Origin: Clostridium phage slur17
Reading direction: 5' to 3' (one strand)
Sequence record: LN881738.1
DNA: 41,318 nucleotides
The notes under the pieces were generated by a model that was given only the letters and a program-made list of their open reading frames with translations, searched no databases and was not told where the DNA came from. How positions within the stretch are numbered: position 1 is the first letter of the stretch; each line of letters starts with the position of its first letter. Of this stretch, positions 879-34,871 are shown piece after piece. Position numbers and translations under genes: made by a program.

Positions 879-2678
879 TTAAGCATAAACATAGTATTGT
901 ACTGTAATAAATCCTTCTGAAAAAAAATTCATTCCGAGCCAGTAGCCTATTGTTTGGCTTCCTGACATTTCGTAAGACACACCTCGCACAGATGCAGAAA
1001 GTTCCAATTGTGGATTTGTATCACTTTTTTTTGCTGTCGCTGATGTGCTGAAATAACTTAAACAGCTACCATTTGTTGATGTAGACCTTATTGCACAAGT
1101 TGCTTTAAAATTTTTACCTGCAAATTTTTTTGGTAAGTCTATTATGATTTTTGAATCTTTATAATCAAAGTATGTGTATCCACTTTCTTGAAGATAATAT
1201 GACTCTGTTACATCTGAACCGGTGTAGAATTTTGTATATAGCCCCGAGTCGGTCATTTTTGTAAATCCCTTCCCGCTTATAAGTTTCAATCCTTCATCAT
1301 CAATAAGAACATAAGGACTTACACTATTAAAAGCAATTTTAAAAGTATTTGGGTTAAAATGAACATCTCCAAAACTATCAATTTCCATTGTTTTGACTCC
1401 ATTATCATTTACGACTACCATTTCTCTAGCATTTATATACATGCCTTTTAGCTGTCCAAACCAACCTCTATCTAGCTTCAACTCCCCAATTAATGCATCT
1501 GCTATTGCTCCTTTTTCTATCCACATAGTTCCATCGTCGATTTTTGTAGTCTGTGCTTCTACTTGATTAGAGAACTCTGTAACATTTCCATGCGAGTTTA
1601 CTGCTCTTACTCTGAAATACCAAGTTTGAAAAGGTTCAGCTTGATGAACGTAAGCACTTGCTTGCCCTACAAAAATTCGATTTGTAAAATTAATTGTATC
1701 TGGTACAAAGTCTTTAATTTGAGACGCATAAACTTCATATTTGTAATAAGACTTATTTGTAAATGTCCATGTTAGATTGATAAAAGCGAATAACCCCTCT
1801 GCTGTCAAAGCTGGTGTATTCGGTAAAGTGTCTGGAAACTCTGAATCATCTACTTTGACATTATCAATAGCTTTTTTTACTGTTTCTATTTTATTTTCTA
1901 TATTATTAAACTTGTTATTTAAAAAGTCTAAATGATTTATTAAATCGCCAACTTCAATACTATAGTATTTTCGATTTATTGGGCTATAGTCTGTTTTAAC
2001 TACTCTAGCAGTTGCGTTAATGTTTAAATTAAAATCTCGTATTATCACTTCATCACCTAGATTGACTGTTTCTAGCATTTTGTAATCTTTATAATTTATA
2101 GTTGTAGATAAATCTACGAAGTTGACTTTGTATAAAACTTTTGGTAAATCAACTTGATTGTATTTAAAATAGTCTTTGCATTTTTCTCTTAATTCTTCTT
2201 CAACACTGACCTCATCAGAACTAAAATCTATAGCAACAATCTTTTGGGTAGCATATTTATTCATATTAGGACTAACAATGTATTTTTCTGTCAATGTAAT
2301 CATTTCATCTTCGTAGACCGCATAAGGATATATTTTTGTTACAATATCTTGTGTATCATACTCCGCTTCAAGCCCTGTTATATTTTTTTTATATGCAAGT
2401 AGCACATTTTTACTCTCACCTCTTTGATAATTTAAGAAAACATTAAAATTATCAAAGAAAAGTTTCGCAGTTGGTTCAAATTTTTGAATTAGAGAATTTT
2501 CGCCCTCGCAGATTGCGCTGTAAGGGCTTTGCATTTCAATATTAATAGTATTCCTTGCCTTGATGTCTGAATGTCCTCTAAATCTGTTCTGTTCCTCACA
2601 AGCACGAAAGACTCTTTCTAAAGCTTCTTCGCAAGTAATATCGTTCAATTCCAAACTTTCTATGAAATTATTAAGCAA
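879..2678 (-). CDS. Tail tip protein (Tal-like, tail-associated endopeptidase-type) with FN3-like segment
   Basis: 599-aa ORF immediately after Dit and the tape measure; C-terminal stretch YFRVRAVNSHGNVTEFSNQV resembles a fibronectin type III strand pattern. The frame stays open for about 98 codons upstream of the annotated TTG (to 2999), so the true start is probably further upstream (see findings). Confidence 0.6.
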   Translation of the reverse strand: MLNNFIESLELNDITCEEALERVFRACEEQNRFRGHSDIKARNTINIEMQSPYSAICEGENSLIQKFEPTAKLFFDNFNVFLNYQRGESKNVLLAYKKNITGLEAEYDTQDIVTKIYPYAVYEDEMITLTEKYIVSPNMNKYATQKIVAIDFSSDEVSVEEELREKCKDYFKYNQVDLPKVLYKVNFVDLSTTINYKDYKMLETVNLGDEVIIRDFNLNINATARVVKTDYSPINRKYYSIEVGDLINHLDFLNNKFNNIENKIETVKKAIDNVKVDDSEFPDTLPNTPALTAEGLFAFINLTWTFTNKSYYKYEVYASQIKDFVPDTINFTNRIFVGQASAYVHQAEPFQTWYFRVRAVNSHGNVTEFSNQVEAQTTKIDDGTMWIEKGAIADALIGELKLDRGWFGQLKGMYINAREMVVVNDNGVKTMEIDSFGDVHFNPNTFKIAFNSVSPYVLIDDEGLKLISGKGFTKMTDSGLYTKFYTGSDVTESYYLQESGYTYFDYKDSKIIIDLPKKFAGKNFKATCAIRSTSTNGSCLSYFSTSATAKKSDTNPQLELSASVRGVSYEMSGSQTIGYWLGMNFFSEGFITVQYYVYA

Positions 2679-3007
2679 ATCATACTTAATGTGTTGCGCT
2701 TTTACATTAATATACCCACCTAGATTTTTTGATATATAATAAATTCTAAAAAGCTGGTCTTTGTAGTCGGGCGAAGTATCAGCTTTAATTAATCTATCTA
2801 CTTTTATTTCTTTAAATAAAAAAGAGTCTTCGTAGATAGTAAATTCTAACTCGAAAACTCCGCTTTCTTCCTCTCTAACATGGTCATTTATTACATTCGT
2901 AAGAACACCTAAACCTAAATGCCTAAAATCTGTTTCTTTTTCTTCATATAAAACTAATTTTCCTTTTTGAATAATTAATCCCTCCCTCCAAATTTTAATT
3001 TAAAACT

Positions 3008-3763
3008 TTATAAAATATTCCATCTAGGATTTATTTTTATGCTTTTTATATCCCCTTCCCAGCTAATCTGATTTTCTCCTTCTTCAAGTATGGGAAAGTC
3101 ACTAAAAAGCTTATTATTTTCATTTACAATAATGTTATTTTCTTTGTTTATTCTATATACATTCATCTGTTCGCTATCTATTATTAAGTCGCTTAAAATT
3201 CCATTTTCTGCCACCCCTCTTAGCACTATGCTTTGAGTATTTATTTTTATACTTATGTCCCCTGCTCCTTCTATATAGAGAACAGGTTTTGACTCTCTAT
3301 AGAAATTTGTTATAGTAGCACTCTTTAGATTTAATACATTTAAACTTATAATTTCTTCTTCTGCGTATCTAAAAGGGTAGCAGTCGAATGTTAAAAGACA
3401 TGATGCAAAGTTTTTAAAATTTCTAGTTATATCTAGTTTATTGTTACAGCTTGCTAGATAATAAAAGTCACTATTACTTAAAAAAAGTTTTTTATATGAT
3501 ATATCGCCCTGTAGCCATTTTTTTATTTCTGTTGCAACTTCTTCTATATTACTTTGTCTTGCATCTATATCGCATTCTATTGTAAGCGTAAAATTTTCAA
3601 AACCTTTTTTTAGTAGTAAATCTCCATCTTTGCCTGGCACACTCACTCTTTCAACTTCCATCTGTGGAGCTGATAAGTCGTTTATATTGTATATTTTTAA
3701 ACCAAATTCTCTGCTGTCTCGACCGTTATAAACGAAAAACATAGCTTTATGCCCTCCTCTCAT
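3008..3763 (-). CDS. Distal tail protein (Dit-like)
   Basis: 251-aa ORF directly downstream of the tape measure gene, the canonical Dit position in siphovirus tail modules; call by synteny only. Confidence 0.55.
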   Translation of the reverse strand: MRGGHKAMFFVYNGRDSREFGLKIYNINDLSAPQMEVERVSVPGKDGDLLLKKGFENFTLTIECDIDARQSNIEEVATEIKKWLQGDISYKKLFLSNSDFYYLASCNNKLDITRNFKNFASCLLTFDCYPFRYAEEEIISLNVLNLKSATITNFYRESKPVLYIEGAGDISIKINTQSIVLRGVAENGILSDLIIDSEQMNVYRINKENNIIVNENNKLFSDFPILEEGENQISWEGDIKSIKINPRWNIL

Positions 3764-3862
3764 TTATTATTTTTTAGACATAACTCCGTTTTTGTAGTTA
3801 TATTTTTTACTATAGTCTTTTCAAAAAAGATAAAAGGAAATATAAAAAAGAAAAGGAACATT

Positions 3863-6800
3863 TTATAAAGCTCCTTTTCTTTTTGCTAAGAACAATATTT
3901 CATCAAAAAGATTTTCTATATCTTGTTGTCTATTATTTACAAAGTTTTCTATATTAAGTTTAATACCTGCTTGATTTTCATTAGCTTCATCAGCCTTATT
4001 ATTACTCATTATAGCTGTTTCTTTTCCAGCTTTAAAATCTGTACTTGCAACTATATTAGCTTGTATTTTAGACGTTTCAAAATTAACTGTAGCTTTTAAT
4101 TTACCTGTAAGTTCAGATATATTTTTCTCTATTTTTTCTTTCAAGCCTGGCGTTTCTACATCTATTCCAACGCCGACCCCTTTTACAAGATTTCTACCAA
4201 TTAAATCTCGCATGATTATGGAAGGTGAATGCACTCCAAAGCCGTCTCTAAATCCATCTATAACATTACTAGCAAAATCAAGGACTTGGTCTTTTAACCA
4301 GCCACCCATGCCCGTTATACCTTCCCATAAGCCTCTTACAACATCTTTCCCGATACTCATAATTTTACTAGGCAAATCTTTCAAAGCATCCTTAACAGCA
4401 TTTGCCATATTTTTTCCAGCTTCTCCAGCTTGTTTGACTAAGTTAGTCCCCCAGCTTATGACATTTGAAATGATATTGTCTAGCCATTCTCTAAATTTTC
4501 CTGGAAGCTGGCTAACAGTATTGTATATATTGTTAAAAAAGTTTTTCGCTGTTTCTAAAGCTTTTTTAGATAAATTAACTTCCCACTCCATGACTTTTTG
4601 CATTATATTAGTTAATTTTTCCCATATTTTGCCCGGAAGTTCTGAAAAGAATTTCATTATATTTTCTAAGAATTTGCTTCCTGTTTCTAATGCTTTTTGA
4701 ATTAGATTAGAACCCCATTCCGAAACTTTTCCCATGATATCTGTAAACTTTTCCCATAATTTTCCCGGAAGCTCCGAAATTGGAATTAATACATTGTCAA
4801 CAAATTGATTAAAAATATCTGTTGCCAATTGCTTTAAATTTTCGCCCCAGCCACTTATTGTTTCTACTACTGTATTAAACCATTCCGAAATTCTTTCGGG
4901 TAGCTCTGTAAAAAACTGTGTTATATTTTCCCAAATTGCACCAAAAAACTCTGAAACAGAAACCTTGAAATTTTCGCCCCAAGTTTGAATATTTTGCAAT
5001 ATGATACTAAAAAATTCCGAAATTTTTTCCGGAAGGCTTACAAACCATTCGACAATGCTATTTATTATTTCTGGTAATGTTTCTGTTGCCCAGGCGTACA
5101 GATTAGCTCCTAAATCAACGAAAAAACCAGCAATAGACCCGATTACAAAACCAATATTATATGGAATTTGTTTAAACCATTCGACAATATTATTTATTAT
5201 AGCTGGCATTGTCTCATTAAAGAAACTTGATATTTTTTCTCCTATTTTCCCACATTCTTCTTTTATCTTGTCGCCAATACCCGCAAACCATTTTGGTACT
5301 GTGCTAGTAAAAAAGTCTAAACCACTTTTTAATCCGCTTCCAATTGCATCTCCAATTTTTGACCCAGTCTCTTTGAACCAATTGCTAAGACCGCCGAAAA
5401 TCTCTACAGCTTTATCTTTTATACTTGAAAAACCTTGCTGTGCCTTATCTCCAAACTCTGTAAAAAAGTCTCCAGCTCCTGCAAATCCTTCACTTATTTT
5501 ATTTCCAAGACCACCAAAAAATCCACCTATATTTTCAATTCCTTCTTTGAATTTATCTTTTACTTTAGAGAAGAAATCACCAATAGAATTTTTTGCACTA
5601 GCTAGCCACTCATTTATATTTTTGTCTGTATCTCTTAGCCATTTTTCTATTCCACCAAAAAAACCACCAATGCCATTGAACCCTTTTTTTATACTTTCAG
5701 ATAATTTACTAGCTGAATCCCCAACTTTAGGGACTGTTCCTGTTACGAGTTCATCACTGACAAGTTCTAAGCCTTCAACAGAAGTTTTAACATCATCTAT
5801 GCCATCAGCATATTCTTCTAGTTCTCCAGCGTCCAGTTTGGCAGAACCAGAATCCAAAGAGGAACTTTTAGCAGATGAGTCTACATCCCCTCCACTTGCG
5901 CTAGAAGTATTAGCTTTTTCTTTTAGTTTCTCATATTCTTCTAACTTTTTCTTCAATCTATCAAGCTCTTTTTCTTGTGCTGGTATAATCTCTTTTAAGT
6001 TAATAGCTTCCTTTACAGCTTCCTGGATAGATTGCTTTTTAGAGTTAACTCCATTTAACAAACTATCTGCTAAACTCTGCCCTGCATCCTGCCAATGCGG
6101 GTTATATTCACTTAAAAGTTTTATAATTTCTTCTGAATTTTTTTGTAAAAGTAGCCTTCTCGCTTCATTTTGAATATTTGTCTCTTCTAAAAGTTCACTA
6201 AAATATTTTTCAATTTCTTCTTTTTGACTAGCATTAGACTCTTTTATCAATTCAAGTTTTTTACTTTCTGCTTCTTTTTGATTGTCGTACTCTTCTTTGT
6301 ACTGCTCTTTTTTGTTACTAGCTTCTGTTTTTATATTTTCAATCTGTTCTTTTAATCTGTTTTTTTCTTGTTGCCTTTGTTCATCTAATAATTTCTTCTG
6401 TCTATCTGATTGTGCTTCTGATATTTCTTTTTGTATTTTTTCTCGTTCTTTTTGATTTTTAGCTGTTGCTAGTTTCCTGTCAAGGTCGCTTATTTTTTCA
6501 TTGTACGCTTTCTCTTCTTCTGCTTTTTGTTCTTCTTCAATTTGCTTGTCTATGGCGTCAATTTGTTCTTGTATAGCATTAGTTTTCTCATTTGTTTCTG
6601 TATCTAAATACTTTAATTTCTCATTGTATTCTTTTTCATAGACCTTTAATCTATCATTTGATGCCTTTTCCTCAACTTTTAGTCTTTCATCAAGCGCTTT
6701 TATTTGTATATCTTTTTGACTTTCATATTGATTTTTTAATGCTGTAGTTATAGCCTCGCAAATTTTTTCAAATTTACTCTTGTTGGTCTCAAGATTTTTT

Positions 6801-9166
6801 TCCATAGCACTTATTAATTCTTTTGTTGCCTCTACTACATCTTTGCTTGTATTTTTTATACCATTAGCAAATCCAATGCCTGCAAATTCTCCAAGTTCTG
6901 TTGTAACTTTAGACGGTGAATGTATTCTTAGTACTTTTTTAAATGTATTAACTACAGTTAAACCGATATTTTTTACAGTATCTACAACCAAACCGATACC
7001 GCTCGAAAGCCCATTTATTATCCCAGCTATTATGTTTTTTCCAAAGGTAACAAAGCCTTTTACAACACTAGAAAAGAAACTAAAAACCTTATTTTTAAAA
7101 CTTACACAACTATTATAAATAGCTTTAAATCCATTTACAAAAGGGCTTAATAACATACTTCCTATACTTTTCCAGTTATTTTTAATAAAACTTAAAACAT
7201 TTTTAAAGATGCCTACAATTTTGTTAAATATAGAATTTACAGTGTTTCTAAAACCTTCACAATTATCGTAAATTAATTTAAATGCTCCAATGAACGGATT
7301 TACTAAAATTAATAATAAGCCTTGCCAGTTACTCTTAATAAAAGACATTGTTTTGCTTAAAGCATCTTTAATGCTGTTAAATAATTTATTTATAGTATTT
7401 CTAAAACCTTCGCAATTATCATAGATTAATTTAAAACCACCAATGAAGGGATTAACAAGTAATAGAGCCAATCCTTGCCAATTTTCTTTTGCAAAGTCTA
7501 TAAATTTACTCATAGCTTGCGGTATTGTTTCAGTAAAGAATTTAGCAATTTGACCGAATATTTTCTCCCCAACTTCTTTAATATTATTCCAAATATTTAT
7601 AACGGCATCTCTGAAACCCTCATTGTTTTTCCAGAGCGATACGAATCCCGCAATCAAAGCCCCTACTGCTACTATAGTTAAACCAATCGGACCACCAAGC
7701 GCCGTTAATGCACCCTTCCACAAATTAGTTGCTACTTGCGCTAAACTTATTTTTTTTGTAACTAATCCAACTATAGTTTCATACAGCGTTAACGTAGTTC
7801 CTGATTCTGCCATCCCTGTGACGAACAGCCTTACAGCAAGTTGCGCATCTGTAAAGCTTTTTTGTATACCCCTTACAATTCCAGCAATTTTTAATCCAGC
7901 GAAAGCAACTCCAATCCCTGTTATCAAAGGAGCTACAAGGCTACCATGCTGAATCAAGAAGGTTATAACATTGATTAAAGGGGTTAATGCTAAAGATATT
8001 AACTTTACAACTGTTCCAATTAACGCACCAATGCTTTCTGCTGTACTTCTTATAGCATTTTTTGTATTTTCGTTTTGAAAAGCCTTAGCAAATTTATTTG
8101 CCAAATCATTTAAAACAGGAAGCAATCCCTCTGCAATTGGAAGAAGTAAATTAACCTGCATTTGCCTTCCAATTCCTGTTATCGCTTCTCCGAAACTATT
8201 GTATTTTATCTTATTAATTTCTTCTAATTTATCTTTTGAACTGCTTATACTTCCTTCGATATTTGTTAGCGCTGTTACTGCATCCGCTTCCAAATCCTCA
8301 AACTTAGTACCAAAGAGTTGTACACCTATCTGATTTTTTAATACATTATCATCTAAATTATTTAAAGCCGTTGTAACCTCAACAAAAGCCTCTTTTGCAC
8401 TACTTCCACCATTTGCAAATTTCTTAGTTAGTTCGTCAGCATTAAAACCGAGCGCCTCAAAAGCTTCCTTAGTTCCATTCGAACCGTCTTTAGCCCTAAT
8501 ATTAAATTCTTTCAAAGCGTCATTTAGATAGTCTATTTGATAGACTCCACTCTCTGCCCCGTTTTTCATCATATTAAACATTTCTTCTGCTGAAAAACCC
8601 ATCTGTGCGTAATATGTCGAATATTCTGCTAACTGGTCTCCGAGGTCATCATTCTGATTTAATCCTTGTTGTGCTCCCTGTGCAATCAAGTTGTACGACT
8701 CTTTTGCGCTAATACCAAATTGGCGCATCATGGAGTTTACGCCATTTAAACTTTCCCCAACATCCATGTCGAAAGTATCCCGCATCATAATCGCACTTTC
8801 AGTAACTTCTTGAATATTGCTAGCGTCTATCCCATCAAGCTTTTGAGATATTAAACTCATAACTTCGCTTATATCGCCCATGTCCTCGCCAAAATTATTT
8901 GCATAGACCTGCTGTAGCGCTTCTCCAAAGCCTTTTGCCTTAGCTTCCGCATTTCCCGTTGCTGACTCGAAACCATTCATTGCCTTTTGGTATTCATCCC
9001 CAAAGTCAATAGCCTGTTTTCCTATAGCTCCCAGACTTGCGCCAATTCCAGCTATCGCAAGAGCGCTTTTTGCTTTCTTCTTCATAGTATCAGCTAAGTT
9101 ATTAAGTTGTTTCTCTGCATCTTCGGTATTTAAAAGGGTATCTATAATAATAGAACCATCTGCCAT
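3863..9166 (-). CDS. Tail tape measure protein
   Basis: 1767-aa protein with N-terminal helical region, long Glu/Lys-rich coiled coil, several hydrophobic segments and multiple internal tandem repeats (IYDNCEGFRNT units; W..E....LPGK units); lies between tail chaperones and Dit. Confidence 0.9.
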   Translation of the reverse strand: MADGSIIIDTLLNTEDAEKQLNNLADTMKKKAKSALAIAGIGASLGAIGKQAIDFGDEYQKAMNGFESATGNAEAKAKGFGEALQQVYANNFGEDMGDISEVMSLISQKLDGIDASNIQEVTESAIMMRDTFDMDVGESLNGVNSMMRQFGISAKESYNLIAQGAQQGLNQNDDLGDQLAEYSTYYAQMGFSAEEMFNMMKNGAESGVYQIDYLNDALKEFNIRAKDGSNGTKEAFEALGFNADELTKKFANGGSSAKEAFVEVTTALNNLDDNVLKNQIGVQLFGTKFEDLEADAVTALTNIEGSISSSKDKLEEINKIKYNSFGEAITGIGRQMQVNLLLPIAEGLLPVLNDLANKFAKAFQNENTKNAIRSTAESIGALIGTVVKLISLALTPLINVITFLIQHGSLVAPLITGIGVAFAGLKIAGIVRGIQKSFTDAQLAVRLFVTGMAESGTTLTLYETIVGLVTKKISLAQVATNLWKGALTALGGPIGLTIVAVGALIAGFVSLWKNNEGFRDAVINIWNNIKEVGEKIFGQIAKFFTETIPQAMSKFIDFAKENWQGLALLLVNPFIGGFKLIYDNCEGFRNTINKLFNSIKDALSKTMSFIKSNWQGLLLILVNPFIGAFKLIYDNCEGFRNTVNSIFNKIVGIFKNVLSFIKNNWKSIGSMLLSPFVNGFKAIYNSCVSFKNKVFSFFSSVVKGFVTFGKNIIAGIINGLSSGIGLVVDTVKNIGLTVVNTFKKVLRIHSPSKVTTELGEFAGIGFANGIKNTSKDVVEATKELISAMEKNLETNKSKFEKICEAITTALKNQYESQKDIQIKALDERLKVEEKASNDRLKVYEKEYNEKLKYLDTETNEKTNAIQEQIDAIDKQIEEEQKAEEEKAYNEKISDLDRKLATAKNQKEREKIQKEISEAQSDRQKKLLDEQRQQEKNRLKEQIENIKTEASNKKEQYKEEYDNQKEAESKKLELIKESNASQKEEIEKYFSELLEETNIQNEARRLLLQKNSEEIIKLLSEYNPHWQDAGQSLADSLLNGVNSKKQSIQEAVKEAINLKEIIPAQEKELDRLKKKLEEYEKLKEKANTSSASGGDVDSSAKSSSLDSGSAKLDAGELEEYADGIDDVKTSVEGLELVSDELVTGTVPKVGDSASKLSESIKKGFNGIGGFFGGIEKWLRDTDKNINEWLASAKNSIGDFFSKVKDKFKEGIENIGGFFGGLGNKISEGFAGAGDFFTEFGDKAQQGFSSIKDKAVEIFGGLSNWFKETGSKIGDAIGSGLKSGLDFFTSTVPKWFAGIGDKIKEECGKIGEKISSFFNETMPAIINNIVEWFKQIPYNIGFVIGSIAGFFVDLGANLYAWATETLPEIINSIVEWFVSLPEKISEFFSIILQNIQTWGENFKVSVSEFFGAIWENITQFFTELPERISEWFNTVVETISGWGENLKQLATDIFNQFVDNVLIPISELPGKLWEKFTDIMGKVSEWGSNLIQKALETGSKFLENIMKFFSELPGKIWEKLTNIMQKVMEWEVNLSKKALETAKNFFNNIYNTVSQLPGKFREWLDNIISNVISWGTNLVKQAGEAGKNMANAVKDALKDLPSKIMSIGKDVVRGLWEGITGMGGWLKDQVLDFASNVIDGFRDGFGVHSPSIIMRDLIGRNLVKGVGVGIDVETPGLKEKIEKNISELTGKLKATVNFETSKIQANIVASTDFKAGKETAIMSNNKADEANENQAGIKLNIENFVNNRQQDIENLFDEILFLAKRKGAL

Positions 9167-15026: not shown

Positions 15027-15157
15027 AAAAACCTCCTGTTTTCATTTACAATTACGCTTTTTTACGTGGTAGCATCACATATTGTCTAACTTTTTACGTC
15101 GCTTAGTAGACATCTATATAAATGAATTAAGTATTTTAAGCATAAAAATAAGTCTTA

Positions 15158-31156: not shown

Positions 31157-31309
31157 ATGGATAATTTTTTACTTAATGTATTAGCTGGTGTTATAGCTAG
31201 TTTAATATTCTATATAATTAGCAAATTATTTAGACAAGTAAAAAACCACTCTGCGCAAAAGAGTGGTTGGGAATTTGATTTGAGAATCAAATTCAAAAAG
31301 TTTAAATAA
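31157..31309 (+). CDS. Small membrane peptide, type I toxin-like (50 aa)
   Basis: Hand-verified ORF MDNFLLNVLAGVIASLIFYIISKLFRQVKNHSAQKSGWEFDLRIKFKKFK with strong SD AGGGAGGTG 6 nt upstream; one hydrophobic helix then a Lys-rich tail; two hairpins in its 3' part. Absent from the ORF track (shorter than 60 aa). Confidence 0.5.
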   Translation: MDNFLLNVLAGVIASLIFYIISKLFRQVKNHSAQKSGWEFDLRIKFKKFK

Positions 31310-31454: not shown

Positions 31455-31566
31455 ACGATAAAATTAAAAAACCACTCAAACGCCAATAAGAGTGGTTTAA
31501 GAAAATAAGTTATTTTTCAAAACATTGGAAATAGCTACTCTTGTGTAAAGTAAATCATTATTTCCT
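31455..31566 (-). ncRNA. Second, paralogous sRNA candidate with no intact partner ORF
   Basis: Near-identical promoter copy (-35 at plus 31599-31604, -10 at plus 31574-31579) and homologous terminator hairpin AACCACTC (31460-31467) / GAGTGGTT (31480-31487) with T-run on the minus strand; no peptide ORF on the plus strand opposite. Confidence 0.35.
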
Positions 31567-31761
31567 TGCTTTTATTATATCACATTTTTTAAAAAAAGAT
31601 ACAATTTTACATCATTTCTAATATACTAAAATCTTTACTTTTTACCAAAATTTGTTTAAAAAATAGGAGAAAACTATTGTTTTTGACGACCCGTCATGGT
31701 ATAATATATTTATAGAGAAGGAGGTGAGAAAGCAAAAAAATAAAAGAAAGGAGGAACGGGA

Positions 31762-32129: not shown

Positions 32130-32312
32130 ATGGAAAAAGAAAAAAGAGATTTAAAGTTTAACTTTCACAAAGGTGGGAGTGGGTCGTTTACTCCTAGAAT
32201 GAGTGTTCCTAAAAAATGGGCTGATGAAATGGGCATAACAAGAGAAAACCCTAATGTTACGGCAACATTCGAGGGCGACAGGATAATAATTGAAAAGGCT
32301 AAGAATGAATGA
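32130..32312 (+). CDS. AbrB/MazE/SpoVT-type DNA-binding domain protein
   Basis: 60 aa; TPRMSVPKKWADEMGITRENPNVTATFEGDRIIIEKA fits the looped-hinge-helix swapped-hairpin fold pattern; good SD AAGGAG. Confidence 0.6.
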   Translation: MEKEKRDLKFNFHKGGSGSFTPRMSVPKKWADEMGITRENPNVTATFEGDRIIIEKAKNE

Positions 32313-32399
32313 CTTTTTCTATAAAAGAAGGTTGCTTTTTTTCTTAGCCTTCTTTTTTTTAAATTTTACTATAATATAAAAATATTACTGTAATATTAT

Positions 32400-32585
32400 A
32401 AAAATATTATTTTAGTATTGTATATACAATATTTTAGTATTTTTAATATAATATATTGGTATTGTAAAAGCAATATGTAAATATTGTATTTATATTATTT
32501 GAATATTGTAATTAACAATATTAATATATTGTTGCAATATTATAAAAACAATACTACAATATTATTATAATATTATAAATATAAT
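32400..32585. repeat. AATATTGT-type repeat array upstream of parA (centromere/operator-like)
   Basis: Many direct and inverted copies of AATATTGTA / TACAATATT, e.g. AGTATTGTATATACAATATT, GAATATTGTAATTAACAATATT. Confidence 0.55.
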
Positions 32586-32591
32586 AATGAG

Positions 32592-33410
32592 GTGGAGAAA
32601 ATGGCTAATACAAAGCTACTTACGTACTTTAACATAAAAGGAGGTATCTATAAGACAACAACGTCTATAATGACAGCGTATGAACTTGCGAAAGATAAAG
32701 ATAAAAAAATACTCTTATGGGACTTAGATGTGCAAGCAAATCTAACACAATATGTTTATGAAATAAATCATAATGATAATACTACATTAGATATTTTAAA
32801 AGGGATTAGTGCTAATGATGCAATAGTCAAGTCACCTAATGAAAATTACATTAATGTAGACTTAATTCCTTCTGACATACAAATGGCTAGATTTGAACAA
32901 GAGCTATCACCTTTACCAGCCAGAGAAAAATTTTTAGCTCGCTGGTACATGCAAAACTTTAATACTTTGAGTGAGTATGATTATATTATCTGTGATTTAT
33001 CTCCACGCTACGATTTGACAGCTAAAAATGTGCTTTTCTTAGCAGATAGTATAATTATTCCAATTCAAGATAAAAACATTTCTTCTTTAAGAGGAGCAGA
33101 ATTATTTAAACAACTCTGGGATGTTGATAGAACCTATTTTGATAAGGAGGATAATATAAAAAGTACTATTTTAGTTGGATTTGAGAAGAAGAAAACTCAA
33201 ATTAGCGATACTTTCGATTCTTATCTGGAAGGGTTTAACGATATGAGAGATATTATGTTAGATACATACATTAGAAAAAATGAGTTTATAGAGAAGGCAC
33301 TATTAAAAAAACTATCTCTAACAGATTATACAAAAATAACTAAAGAGCATTTCAGCAGACAGGAATTTACTAATATGTTAGAAGAATTGAAAAGAAAAGG
33401 AGTGTTATAG
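32592..33410 (+). CDS. parA: ParA/Soj-family partition ATPase
   Basis: 272 aa; deviant Walker A KGGIYKTTT, A' motif LLWDLDVQAN, Walker B YIICDLSP. Confidence 0.85.
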   Translation: MEKMANTKLLTYFNIKGGIYKTTTSIMTAYELAKDKDKKILLWDLDVQANLTQYVYEINHNDNTTLDILKGISANDAIVKSPNENYINVDLIPSDIQMARFEQELSPLPAREKFLARWYMQNFNTLSEYDYIICDLSPRYDLTAKNVLFLADSIIIPIQDKNISSLRGAELFKQLWDVDRTYFDKEDNIKSTILVGFEKKKTQISDTFDSYLEGFNDMRDIMLDTYIRKNEFIEKALLKKLSLTDYTKITKEHFSRQEFTNMLEELKRKGVL

Positions 33411-33743
33411 ATGCCAAGTTTCAACAGAGACCTTTTAGTTGATAAAGAAAAACCGATTTTGAAAAATGGAACAATCGTACAAAATGATTCTACAACTACA
33501 GACAATAAGACATTAAACATATATAATCTAGTTAATAAGAAAAGTAAAAAAGTGACTATGAGTGCAACGCTTGATGAGGAGCTTGTAAACAAATTAAAAT
33601 CTTTTTCTATTGATATGAACAGCGACGTTAGTAAATTATTAAGTGATATACTAACTCAAATTTTATCTGATGTCACTATAAAAGAAGAGAATTTAAATAT
33701 ATACAATGAGAGAAATAGAAGAAATAAGACTAAGAAAAAGTAA
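33411..33743 (+). CDS. Putative centromere-binding partition protein (ribbon-helix-helix-like)
   Basis: 110 aa; start codon directly follows the parA stop; VTMSATLDEELVNKLKSFSIDMNSDVSKLLSDIL is consistent with a beta-strand plus two helices; basic C-terminal tail. Confidence 0.45.
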   Translation: MPSFNRDLLVDKEKPILKNGTIVQNDSTTTDNKTLNIYNLVNKKSKKVTMSATLDEELVNKLKSFSIDMNSDVSKLLSDILTQILSDVTIKEENLNIYNERNRRNKTKKK

Positions 33744-33749
33744 ATAATA

Positions 33750-33860
33750 TTATATTTATATTGTTTAGATATTACTTAAATATTGTATATATAATATTTA
33801 AGTAATATTTTAATATTATTATTACAATATATTAATATTGTTTAAATAATATGTTTTAAC
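33750..33860. repeat. Second AATATTGT-type repeat array, downstream of the partition genes
   Basis: AAATATTGTATATATAATATTT and TACAATATATTAATATTGTTTAAA; same motif family as the array upstream of parA. Confidence 0.5.
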
Positions 33861-33877
33861 TATAATCTAAAAAGGGG

Positions 33878-34168
33878 TTGGAAAAGATGAACGTTTATCT
33901 GCAAATTGGAAAAGAGTTATCTGAAAAAATGACTAAATCGGAGTTGAATAAGTTTTCGCAAGAAGTAACGAATTATCTACGATTCGCTGGACATGATAAT
34001 GATATGAAAATTAAACTATTTCAAACAATTATAGAAGCAATTGCTAGAAAAAGAGTAACATTGCCAGCTGACAATGAATTTACACAAGGAATAATGTTAA
34101 GTAACGAATTAGAGATGACAACGAATGTAGGATTTATAATCGAAGGATTAAGTTATCATAATAACTAA
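33878..34168 (+). CDS. Hypothetical protein
   Basis: 96-aa ORF; the likely true start is the ATG at 33887 (MNVYLQIGKE...); followed by a strong terminator. Confidence 0.45.
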   Translation: MEKMNVYLQIGKELSEKMTKSELNKFSQEVTNYLRFAGHDNDMKIKLFQTIIEAIARKRVTLPADNEFTQGIMLSNELEMTTNVGFIIEGLSYHNN

Positions 34169-34177
34169 ACATTAAAA

Positions 34178-34210
34178 AACAGTGTATTTATTGAATACAC
34201 TGTTTTTATT
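34178..34210 (+). terminator. Intrinsic terminator
   Basis: ACAGTGTATTTATTGAATACACTGT hairpin followed by TTTTTATTT. Confidence 0.55.
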
Positions 34211-34400
34211 TCCGCATAGTTAATCTAAAATTGGATATTATATTATTTCTATATAAATTAAATTGACATTTAAATCCCTCATAGTTAATCTTAAAATTCT
34301 TATTACAATATTATTTCTAAATAAATTAAAAAATATTTTAAATCCCTCGTAGTTAATCTTAAAAGCGATACTATATACATTAATAATAATACTCTTCTAC
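34205..34400. repeat. Three tandem imperfect direct repeats of about 66 bp
   Basis: Core TTTAAATCCCTC(A/G)TAGTTAATCTTAAAA recurs at about 34215, 34280 and 34348 with similar intervening sequence (ATTATTTCTA.ATAAATTAAA). Confidence 0.6.
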
Positions 34401-34871
34401 TTAATTTTCAATTACATTTTGCAATTCTTGTTTACAACTTTCAATGCCTTTTTGTAATTCTTCTAAAAAAACTGATGTGCTATCGTCTATATTTCTTTCA
34501 GCAATTTCTTCGAAATTTTCTTTATTGAATTTTTTATAACTATCCCAATCCAAATTTTCCCACTCATTTTCACACCAATTTTCAAATTCTTCATAATCGT
34601 TTACGTAACAAATTTCTCCAAGCATATCGTTTAAATGAGTTGGCGCTTGATTTAATGTGAAAATATTAATTTCTTTGTCATCACCTAAAAGTTTAGCCCA
34701 AGTTTGAACTGCTATCGCTTCAACTTTTCCTTGTATATCGATATAAATTTTTATATTATTAGTCTCTTTGATTAAACAACTTTCTTTAAAAGCTTTTATA
34801 GCTTCTTCCTCTATTTTATCTATATTCATATCTATAACTCTTAAAAATCTTCTAGCTTTTTGTTTATTCAT
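34401..34871 (-). CDS. Hypothetical acidic protein (third gene of uncharacterised operon)
   Basis: 156 aa, Trp/Glu-rich (ENWCENEWENLDWDSY); no motif recognised. Confidence 0.5.
   Translation of the reverse strand: MNKQKARRFLRVIDMNIDKIEEEAIKAFKESCLIKETNNIKIYIDIQGKVEAIAVQTWAKLLGDDKEINIFTLNQAPTHLNDMLGEICYVNDYEEFENWCENEWENLDWDSYKKFNKENFEEIAERNIDDSTSVFLEELQKGIESCKQELQNVIEN

Follow-up and report, generated by a model that had tools for sequence, protein, structure and literature searches.

A putative type Ib partition cassette bracketed by two arrays of 11-bp phased boxes in the phage-plasmid Clostridium phage slur17

Results and discussion

Organization of the par locus

The sequence of Clostridium phage slur17 (LN881738.1), analysed here as a single stretch of 41,318 nucleotides that is referred to as the window, contains a candidate partition (par) cassette composed of a gene for a ParA-type ATPase, a gene for a small ribbon-helix-helix (RHH) protein, hereafter called the adaptor, and two arrays of short AT-rich boxes, one located upstream and the other downstream of both genes. 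The ATG of the adaptor gene directly follows the parA stop codon TAG. The coordinates of these elements and of other features of the window are listed in Table 1.

Table 1. Features of the par locus and of other regions of the slur17 window.
Feature	Position	Strand	Description
Upstream array (parC1-like)	32371..32590		~20 units of 11 bp; AATATTRT boxes in both orientations
Downstream array (parC2-like)	33744..33856		~10 units of 11 bp; same AATATTRT boxes
parA	32601..33410	+	269-aa type Ib Walker-type partition ATPase; deviant Walker A KGGIYKT
parA alternative start	32592	+	GTG
Adaptor gene	33411..33743	+	110-aa predicted centromere-binding adaptor
Putative parA promoter	32532..32560	+	TTGCAA-17 nt-TACAAT, overlapped by boxes
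Terminator-like hairpin	32323..32361	+	12-bp stem and U-run; ends AbrB/MazE-like gene
60-aa AbrB/MazE/SpoVT-like protein	32130-32312	+	Pfam MazE_antitoxin, 0.0056
93-aa open reading frame (ORF), phrog_4021	33887..34168	+	After downstream array
Bidirectional terminator-like hairpin	34175-34207		Follows 93-aa ORF
50-aa hydrophobic ORF	31157-31309	+	Equivalent of phiCD38-2 gp33
Tyrosine recombinase, 202 aa	21499-22107	-	Phage_integrase 3.8e-21; catalytic domain only
Serine resolvase, 198 aa	20465-21061	-	Resolvase 1.7e-31 plus helix-turn-helix (HTH)
GP20-b RNA motif (Rfam)	15053-15112	-	55 bits, E = 1.3e-9; within phage head-gene block

Repeat arrays flanking the par genes

Both arrays are built from a degenerate box, repeated in an 11-bp register, for which a consensus of wAATATT(G/A)Tw was derived after all copies had been oriented alike. 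The initial annotation of this DNA had described dense arrays of an 8-9-bp motif on both sides of the genes, and the density, the two-sided arrangement and the 8-mer core were correct. The upstream array, placed by that annotation from about position 32400, begins near 32371, and the repeat period is 11 bp, with boxes in both orientations and each array forming an imperfect palindrome (199 bp at 69% in the upstream array; 84 bp at 81%, positions 33747-33830, in the downstream one). The upstream array has in addition a stronger 22-bp super-period, an overall dyad symmetry and a phase slip of +1 near position 32516. When both arrays were compared with each other they were found to be alike in both orientations, with expectation values (E) down to 4e-12.

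The core TATT[GA][TC], considered on either strand, occurs 24 times in the interval 32360-32592 and 13 times in 33744-33860, compared to 0.6 times per 100 bp elsewhere. Box density is about 17-fold over background, and no other cluster of at least six boxes was found within the 41-kb window. The exact 8-mer AATATTGT is present 14 times in the window versus 5.8 +/- 2.3 expected copies, a count that was reached in none of 100 shuffles, and half of its copies (7 of 14) are located within the two flanks.

The GC content of the arrays, which span 220 and 113 bp, is 9.5%. In 2000 shuffles that kept the dinucleotides of the arrays, neither the observed number of boxes nor the autocorrelation at lag 22 nor the 11-bp phase statistic (Rayleigh) was ever attained, and therefore the signal is not merely due to AT-richness. 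Autocorrelation peaks were observed at lags 11, 22 and 33, and Tandem Repeats Finder (TRF) independently yielded periods of 11, 22 and 33 bp at both arrays. In a genome-wide scan for 11-bp periodicity, the downstream array ranked first among all segments of the window, with the upstream array near the top. Adaptor-type arrays are placed both upstream and downstream of the par genes, as in a dual-centromere layout.

The ParA ATPase

The ParA protein matched the Pfam family AAA_31 (4.4e-33, aligned from residue 5), as well as CbiA/ParA-type domains, and the PHROG family 'ParA-like partition protein' (1.6e-58). Its closest relatives of solved structure are Borrelia PF-32 (3e-15), Soj proteins, the delta protein of pSM19035 (2oze, 1.7e-5) and P1 ParA. 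The Walker A sequence KGGIYKTT occupies residues 13-20, and its first seven residues (KGGIYKT, 13-19), which are invariant in six members of the ParA clade, fit the deviant motif defined as KGGxxK[S/T] (PMC9178275), with a Tyr that replaces the usual Gly. The same Tyr is found in the KGGVYKT Walker A of SopA from the F plasmid (PMC9178275). Type Ib ParA proteins have 192-308 aa and carry no DNA-binding domain at the N-terminus (PMC3235114); the slur17 protein, with 269 aa, is devoid of an N-terminal extension or HTH.

In the GenBank record of phage phiCD38-2 (relative L001, HM568888.1, positions 6769-7509) the equivalent gene, gp30 'putative para', is annotated with 741 nt, and its coordinates place the start about 23 codons further downstream than in RefSeq and other records. 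Because this GenBank start would lose the Walker A motif, the N-terminus of gp30 is probably mis-annotated.

The small RHH adaptor

An N-terminal tail, an RHH domain (approximately residues 46-85), one more helix on its C-terminal side and a basic tail were distinguished in the 110-aa adaptor, whose size lies within the 46-131 aa taken as the range of type Ib adaptors and which is encoded, as in these systems, immediately downstream of parA. Searches with the single sequence gave a weak match to the PHROG 'Arc-like repressor' (6e-5, residues 45-77) and nothing useful in Pfam and the PDB, so that a family profile was needed. An exhaustive profile search has revealed a family of 26 clusters at 50% identity, the alignment of which displays the classic RHH pattern. 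This family profile matched in the PDB SvtR (2kel, 4.4e-6), E73 (4aai, 1e-4), a CopG-family protein (9kkd, 3.4e-3) and ParG (1p94, 0.014), as well as ORF56, AvtR, PutA and CdbA, and individual family members matched the Pfam families RHH_1, RHH_3, RHH_5 and DUF6364. The Pfam family of ParG (PF09274) did not match the slur17 adaptor and was found in just one of 27 family members (E = 0.033). By sequence, the adaptor does not belong to the ParG family, with which it appears to share fold and role, and it can be assigned to a small RHH subfamily whose members of named source come from Clostridioides and Paraclostridium.

A monomer model of the 110-aa adaptor produced by AlphaFold2 (AF2) was poor, with a predicted local distance difference test (pLDDT) value of 62 and no beta-strand, as expected since the RHH fold forms only as an intertwined dimer. 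It was replaced by a fused dimer, in which residues 42-100 were joined by a linker as a tandem and modelled with a matched alignment. In this AF2 model 104 residues showed a pLDDT higher than 90, with a predicted template modelling (pTM) score of 0.72, and each half was composed of strand-helix-helix plus a third helix, as derived from the secondary-structure string. The top PDB matches of the fused dimer in Foldseek, with weak E-values (0.026 or worse), were F-plasmid relaxosome chains, a permuted single-chain Arc, AvtR and VirC2. We take the relaxosome chains to be TraY, and TraY, single-chain Arc, AvtR and VirC2 are presumably all RHH folds, three of them single-chain or tandem. Both the sequence profile and the predicted fold indicate that the adaptor is an RHH protein, with the beta-alpha-alpha dimer fold of the RHH class ('ParB-III') present in the profile matches and in the fused-dimer model. 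Residues 1-45 were modelled with low confidence and without regular structure, and include a conserved MPxF..LL..E.P motif.

Wherever the gene preceding a member of the adaptor family was recovered and typable, it proved to be a ParA gene. The ATPase with deviant Walker A, the small RHH protein abutting its stop codon and the plasmid-type nature of the cassette, all of them proposed in the initial annotation, were thus borne out, the last one by the type Ib ParA together with its small adaptor.

Conservation and covariation of the cassette in relatives

The 2.5-kb par region is 100% identical to those of phage CDSH1 and the circular C. difficile plasmid NZ_CP021446.1, and 97.8-99% identical to those of phiCD38-2, phiCD111 and phiCD146. 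Identities of 94-99% were found in phiCD111, phiCD146, phiCD38-2, JD032, phiCD506 and phiCDHM11/13/14, phages that span at least two genera (Leicestervirus and Sherbrookevirus), and a par region 94-99% identical is also carried by many C. difficile plasmids of 32-42 kb; the region is deposited in databases as circular plasmids.

More divergent loci were informative about the boxes. In the relatives L002, L011, L012 and L013 the adaptor is 65-72% identical to that of slur17, the inter-box DNA has diverged and the array lengths vary, and TATTGT/TATTAT-type boxes still fill both flanks. The upstream box array is conserved in L001, L002, L005, L011, L012 and L013. The downstream array begins within a few bases of the adaptor stop codon in L002, L011, L012 and L013, and it is kept directly after this codon in all relatives of the C. 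difficile clade, whichever gene follows. The next gene is convergent in L002, L011 and L013, and in L012 a different gene is located about 300 bp away. The persistence of the downstream array in front of convergent or different genes argues that it is a component of the par cassette rather than of a neighbouring promoter, and that in those relatives it is not an operator for the downstream gene.

In Paraclostridium plasmids and in a metagenomic relative, with adaptors 39-41% identical, the predicted DNA-reading beta-strand is EQVGVT, versus VTMSAT, which is invariant in the C. difficile clade. AATATTRT boxes are absent from these Paraclostridium and metagenomic loci, where palindromes of AACTnAGTT/TAGTTAT boxes are found in front of parA and shortly behind the adaptor gene; the 11-bp register is readable in the upstream site of L003. 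A joint change of beta-strand and box, here between two clades only, would be expected if the protein reads the boxes. In total, the two-sided layout is conserved in 7 relatives with two box types, and the cassette with both arrays appears, from these comparisons, to behave as a portable module among C. difficile phage genera and plasmids.

In the distant relative L019 (positions 1193-3766, adaptor P0031), about 350 bp of TTTATATAAA-type repeats separate the ParA-RHH pair from a following actin-like (ALP_N/MreB-like) gene, and this may be a double partition locus of type I plus type II.

Transcription signals and neighbouring genes

The par transcription unit is delimited on its left by the terminator-like hairpin at 32323-32361 (RNA fold of -11.3 kcal/mol, z = -2.4), with a AGCCTTCTTTTT element that relatives have retained. 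Promoter scanning was non-specific in this AT-rich DNA and only the site supported by conservation was kept. This putative parA promoter, TTGCAA-17-TACAAT, lies inside the upstream array, and its hexamers and spacing are kept in four of five aligned relatives (phiCD38-2, L002, L011 and L013), the first hexamer being altered in L012. This position agrees with the rule that type Ib operons are repressed from the centromere by their small adaptor, operator and centromere being the same sites (PMC3235114).

The 93-aa ORF that follows the downstream array may be co-transcribed with the cassette. It is absent downstream of the cassette in L002, L011, L012 and L013 and is not a constant part of it. 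On the other side, the 60-aa AbrB/MazE-like protein, annotated as AbrB/MazE or PemI in plasmid records, is encoded directly upstream of the cassette in the C. difficile clade, and a toxin partner for it is not obvious. A gene for a 57-aa RHH protein takes its position in the metagenomic relative L006.

The slur17 element as a phage-plasmid

The first 25 kb and the last 2 kb of the window are colinear with the circular plasmid NZ_CP021446.1 (98.3% identity over the first 25 kb), and both window ends map 73 nt apart within one tail-protein gene of this plasmid. The window is therefore free of host flanks, and corresponds to a complete phiCD38-2-like phage-plasmid. No single continuous frame across the window ends was obtained in a circular-junction ORF test. 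The sequence (1 / 41318) is linearised within the tail-protein gene, where a length difference of about 230 bp with respect to NZ_CP021446.1 suggests a repeat-length polymorphism in the tail fibre.

The first C. difficile prophage for which maintenance as an extrachromosomal plasmid was shown is phiCD38-2 (PMC6127314), and it was frequent among the extrachromosomal elements found in genome surveys (PMC6807378). It has been tabulated with a ParA-Ib-type ATPase plus ParB-III and with two recombinases, a Xer-like one of the tyrosine type and a small one of the serine type (PMC8026635). The near-identity and the circular state place slur17 among the phiCD38-2-like phage-plasmids (Leicestervirus), the episomal state being reported for phiCD38-2 (PMC6127314). 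phiCD38-2, CDSH1, phiCD111 and phiCD146 are the same element as slur17, without any difference in kind, and the extrachromosomal lifestyle is established for the phiCD38-2 phage family. The extrachromosomal replicon proposed in the initial annotation agrees with this plasmid prophage (PMC6127314), with the circular plasmid deposits and with the lack of host flanks. Both the cassette type and the episomal lifestyle were already known, and nothing is new in either of them. The flanking arrays are unannotated in the database records examined and undescribed in the literature examined, which did not cover the original phiCD38-2 papers.

Interpretation of the cassette and alternative explanations

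Taken as a whole, the locus is very probably a type Ib (ParA plus RHH adaptor) partition locus that keeps a phiCD38-2-like phage as a low-copy circular plasmid prophage. By analogy with par2 of plasmid pB171 and with plasmid pMF1, the upstream array is best read as operator plus centromere and the downstream array as a second centromere. The combination of operator and centromere considered in the initial annotation fits the promoter-like site in the upstream array and the retention of the downstream array next to differing genes. Judging from the sequence, the adaptor would bind both arrays and the cassette would stabilise the plasmid.

Several observations weigh against this interpretation of the arrays. 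We infer all cis-site function from sequence statistics and conservation, and individual box calls are soft because the boxes are short and AT-only in DNA with 9.5% GC. In phiCDHM13 the downstream array is complete and only the promoter-proximal ~95 bp of the upstream array are present; with half of this array missing, array length would not be critical and the number of units would be flexible. The two-sided layout is less clear in the distant members L017 and L019. The putative promoter is a 9-of-12 match to the consensus, and such matches are found 36 times versus about 20 expected. Finally, in the window and its closest relatives the downstream array is followed by a same-strand ORF with a TATAAT-like element, and for these elements the downstream array could still have an operator role.

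One alternative explanation is that the arrays are transcriptional operators only, from which the RHH protein represses parA and the 93-aa ORF, with the true centromere, if any, located elsewhere. It would account for the promoter-like site within the upstream array and for the TTGTTT-17-TATAAT-like element and ribosome-binding site with which the downstream array ends, ahead of the ORF 33887-34168. RHH proteins are commonly repressors, and the adaptor matched the 'Arc-like repressor' family (6e-5). However, ten to twenty phased boxes far exceed the need of an operator, the downstream array is retained where the following gene is convergent (L002, L011, L013) or is a different one about 300 bp away (L012), the 41-kb element contains no further box cluster that could act as centromere, and operator and centromere share sites in type Ib systems (PMC3235114). 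An operator-only function is thus considered improbable.

Even less likely is that the arrays are the iterons or the AT-rich unwinding element of a plasmid-mode replication origin instead of partition sites. Extreme AT-richness (9.5% GC) with phased short repeats would suit such an origin, and the window has its single block of plus-strand genes in the par region, where the GC skew also changes sign locally, but no replication initiator gene adjoins the arrays. These bracket exactly parA and the RHH gene, travel along with them into unrelated phage backbones and Paraclostridium plasmids, and have a box sequence that changes together with the RHH beta-strand, all of which is contrary to an origin. 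The explanation already disfavoured, and the least credible one, is that of chance low-complexity or intrinsically curved AT-rich DNA without any sequence-specific role. C. difficile phage intergenic DNA is certainly AT-rich and AATATT-like words are common in it, but neither the box count nor the 11-bp phasing was matched in the 2000 dinucleotide shuffles, the ~17-fold box density is restricted to the only two clusters of the window, and boxes are conserved while the inter-box DNA diverges.

Comparison with known partition systems

The closest functional analogue of the slur17 cassette is par2 of the E. coli virulence plasmid pB171, where also a small Walker-type ParA is encoded with a small adaptor directly downstream, and repeat arrays are found upstream (parC1) and downstream (parC2) of the genes. 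Ringgaard et al. in 2007 reportedly found that ParB of par2 is an RHH protein, that the promoter is held by parC1, and that both sites are centromere-active and paired by ParB. The repeats of pB171 are 6-bp units, unlike the slur17 boxes of 8 bp in an 11-bp register, and slur17 differs also in its Gram-positive anaerobic host and in its phage carrier. Beyond the ParA superfamily and the RHH fold, no shared sequence family was detected between both systems. The two-sided organization of par2 is reflected in the way its constructs are written, parC1+ parA+ parB parC2+ (PMC4270457).

In the parCAB system of the Myxococcus plasmid pMF1, imperfect iterons are present upstream (ItA) and downstream (ItB) of the par genes, as in slur17, and ParB binds both of them in electrophoretic mobility shift assays (PMC3235114). 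pMF1 is unlike slur17 in having three genes, unrelated adaptor sequences and additional dispersed sites. Considering the precedents of parC1/parC2 in pB171 par2 and ItA/ItB in pMF1, the unusual character that the initial annotation attributed to two-sided arrays was overstated.

TP228 ParF-ParG-parH is of type Ib like the slur17 locus. Its RHH protein ParG forms a dimer and has a flexible tail at the N-terminus, and the ATPase ParF has about 200 aa versus 269 aa in slur17 ParA. The parH site is located upstream only. A Walker ATPase and an RHH protein are also combined in delta-omega of pSM19035, from plasmids of Firmicutes. The omega protein binds arrays of short repeats, direct and inverted, at several sites, acts as global repressor and wraps DNA in a left-handed helix (PMC9178275). 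slur17 differs from pSM19035 in its 11-bp spacing and in having two sites that bracket the genes. The repeats bound by omega are 7-bp heptads that adjoin one another in three promoter regions. ParR, the RHH adaptor of plasmid R1, binds a set of ten 11-bp iterons that flank the operon promoter on either side. The slur17 cassette resembles R1 parMRC in the 11-bp repeat period, the RHH adaptor and the proposed operator-within-centromere logic, whereas R1 has an actin-like ParM motor and a single upstream parC. The motor of slur17 is a Walker-type ParA and not the actin-like ParM that characterizes type II parMRC systems.

Proposed mechanism and significance

In the mechanism proposed for the type Ib reading, RHH dimers of the adaptor would insert their paired beta-strands in successive major grooves at the AATATTRT boxes. 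Since these boxes are 11 bp apart, neighbouring dimers would be situated on one face of the DNA. Binding would be cooperative, and the coated DNA would amount to about 220 bp on the upstream side and about 110 bp on the downstream side of the genes. By covering the parA promoter, the upstream complex would autorepress the operon, and the complexes on both arrays would constitute the partition complex, possibly bridged to each other or to sister copies. The flexible N-terminal tail of the adaptor would touch nucleoid-bound ParA-ATP dimers and stimulate ATP hydrolysis, so that the plasmid would trail the receding ParA gradient and copies would be spaced apart before division. A plasmid that follows a ParA gradient corresponds to the model established in type I systems (PMC4270457, PMC9662831).

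A more elaborate possibility, which we regard as unlikely, is that the adaptor coats both arrays as superhelical filaments similar to those of ParR/parC and bridges them, looping out parA and the adaptor gene. If true, repression, pairing of sister plasmids and stimulation of ParA would be coupled in one structure, a type II-style centromere architecture would drive a type I (Walker) motor, and the cassette would be a self-contained module that turns integrating phages into plasmids upon recombining in.

Epidemic C. difficile commonly carries phiCD38-2-like phage-plasmids, which alter the expression of toxins and surface proteins (PMC6127314, PMC6807378). Once defined, the approximately 1.5 kb that keep the phage-plasmid in the cell would be a target for curing lysogens, and the cassette would be a ready-made stabiliser for the unstable plasmids used in C. 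difficile genetics. With a small adaptor, two arrays and natural box variants, it also offers a compact Gram-positive type Ib model of centromere building by RHH adaptors. The current understanding of partition systems is unchanged by the cassette.

Other features of the window

The tyrosine recombinase had been regarded as truncated in the initial annotation, which was not substantiated: the protein is short, with the catalytic domain only, it is intact in RefSeq and Xer-like (PMC8026635), and a serine resolvase gene is adjacent. This pair of recombinases likely provides multimer-resolution or inversion functions rather than an integrase, multimer resolution being a plausible role.

The gp33 protein of phiCD38-2, equivalent to the 50-aa hydrophobic ORF of the window, is the toxin of a type I toxin-antitoxin system, acquired with parA on a 1.9-kb plasmid-derived segment (PMC7699646). 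Accordingly, a post-segregational killing module would be situated 1.3 kb upstream of the partition cassette. The 1.9-kb parA-carrying region was reported to come from plasmid pCD630 (PMC7699646), and a pCD630-like donor was not confirmed in the plasmid collection. Between this ORF and the cassette, an unannotated segment of ~130-170 bp (31457-31624) has counterparts of 79-96% identity in C. difficile plasmids of small size (9.5 and 11.7 kb) as well as in phiCD211-like megaplasmids of 130 kb; it could correspond to the antitoxin RNA or to regulatory DNA of the type I toxin-antitoxin system.

Three direct repeats with the core TTTAAATCCCTCATAGTTAATCTTAAAA and spacings of 65 and 68 bp are found at 34204-34380, between the terminator 34175-34207 and the minus-strand gene 34401-34871. 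They presumably resemble the C. difficile type I-B CRISPR repeat, and a degenerate CRISPR mini-array was considered and rejected, since the 'spacers' are 86% alike, TRF describes a tandem repeat with a 68-bp unit (2.3 copies, 83% match) and no Rfam CRISPR family was found. The TTTAAATCCCTCATAGTTAATCTTAAAA-type repeat string was not found in the literature searched, and these repeats could be iterons or a regulatory tandem repeat. They accompany the par module into phiCDHM13-type phages, with homology extending to about position 34364. Far from the par locus, one Rfam RNA motif, GP20-b, was identified (Table 1).

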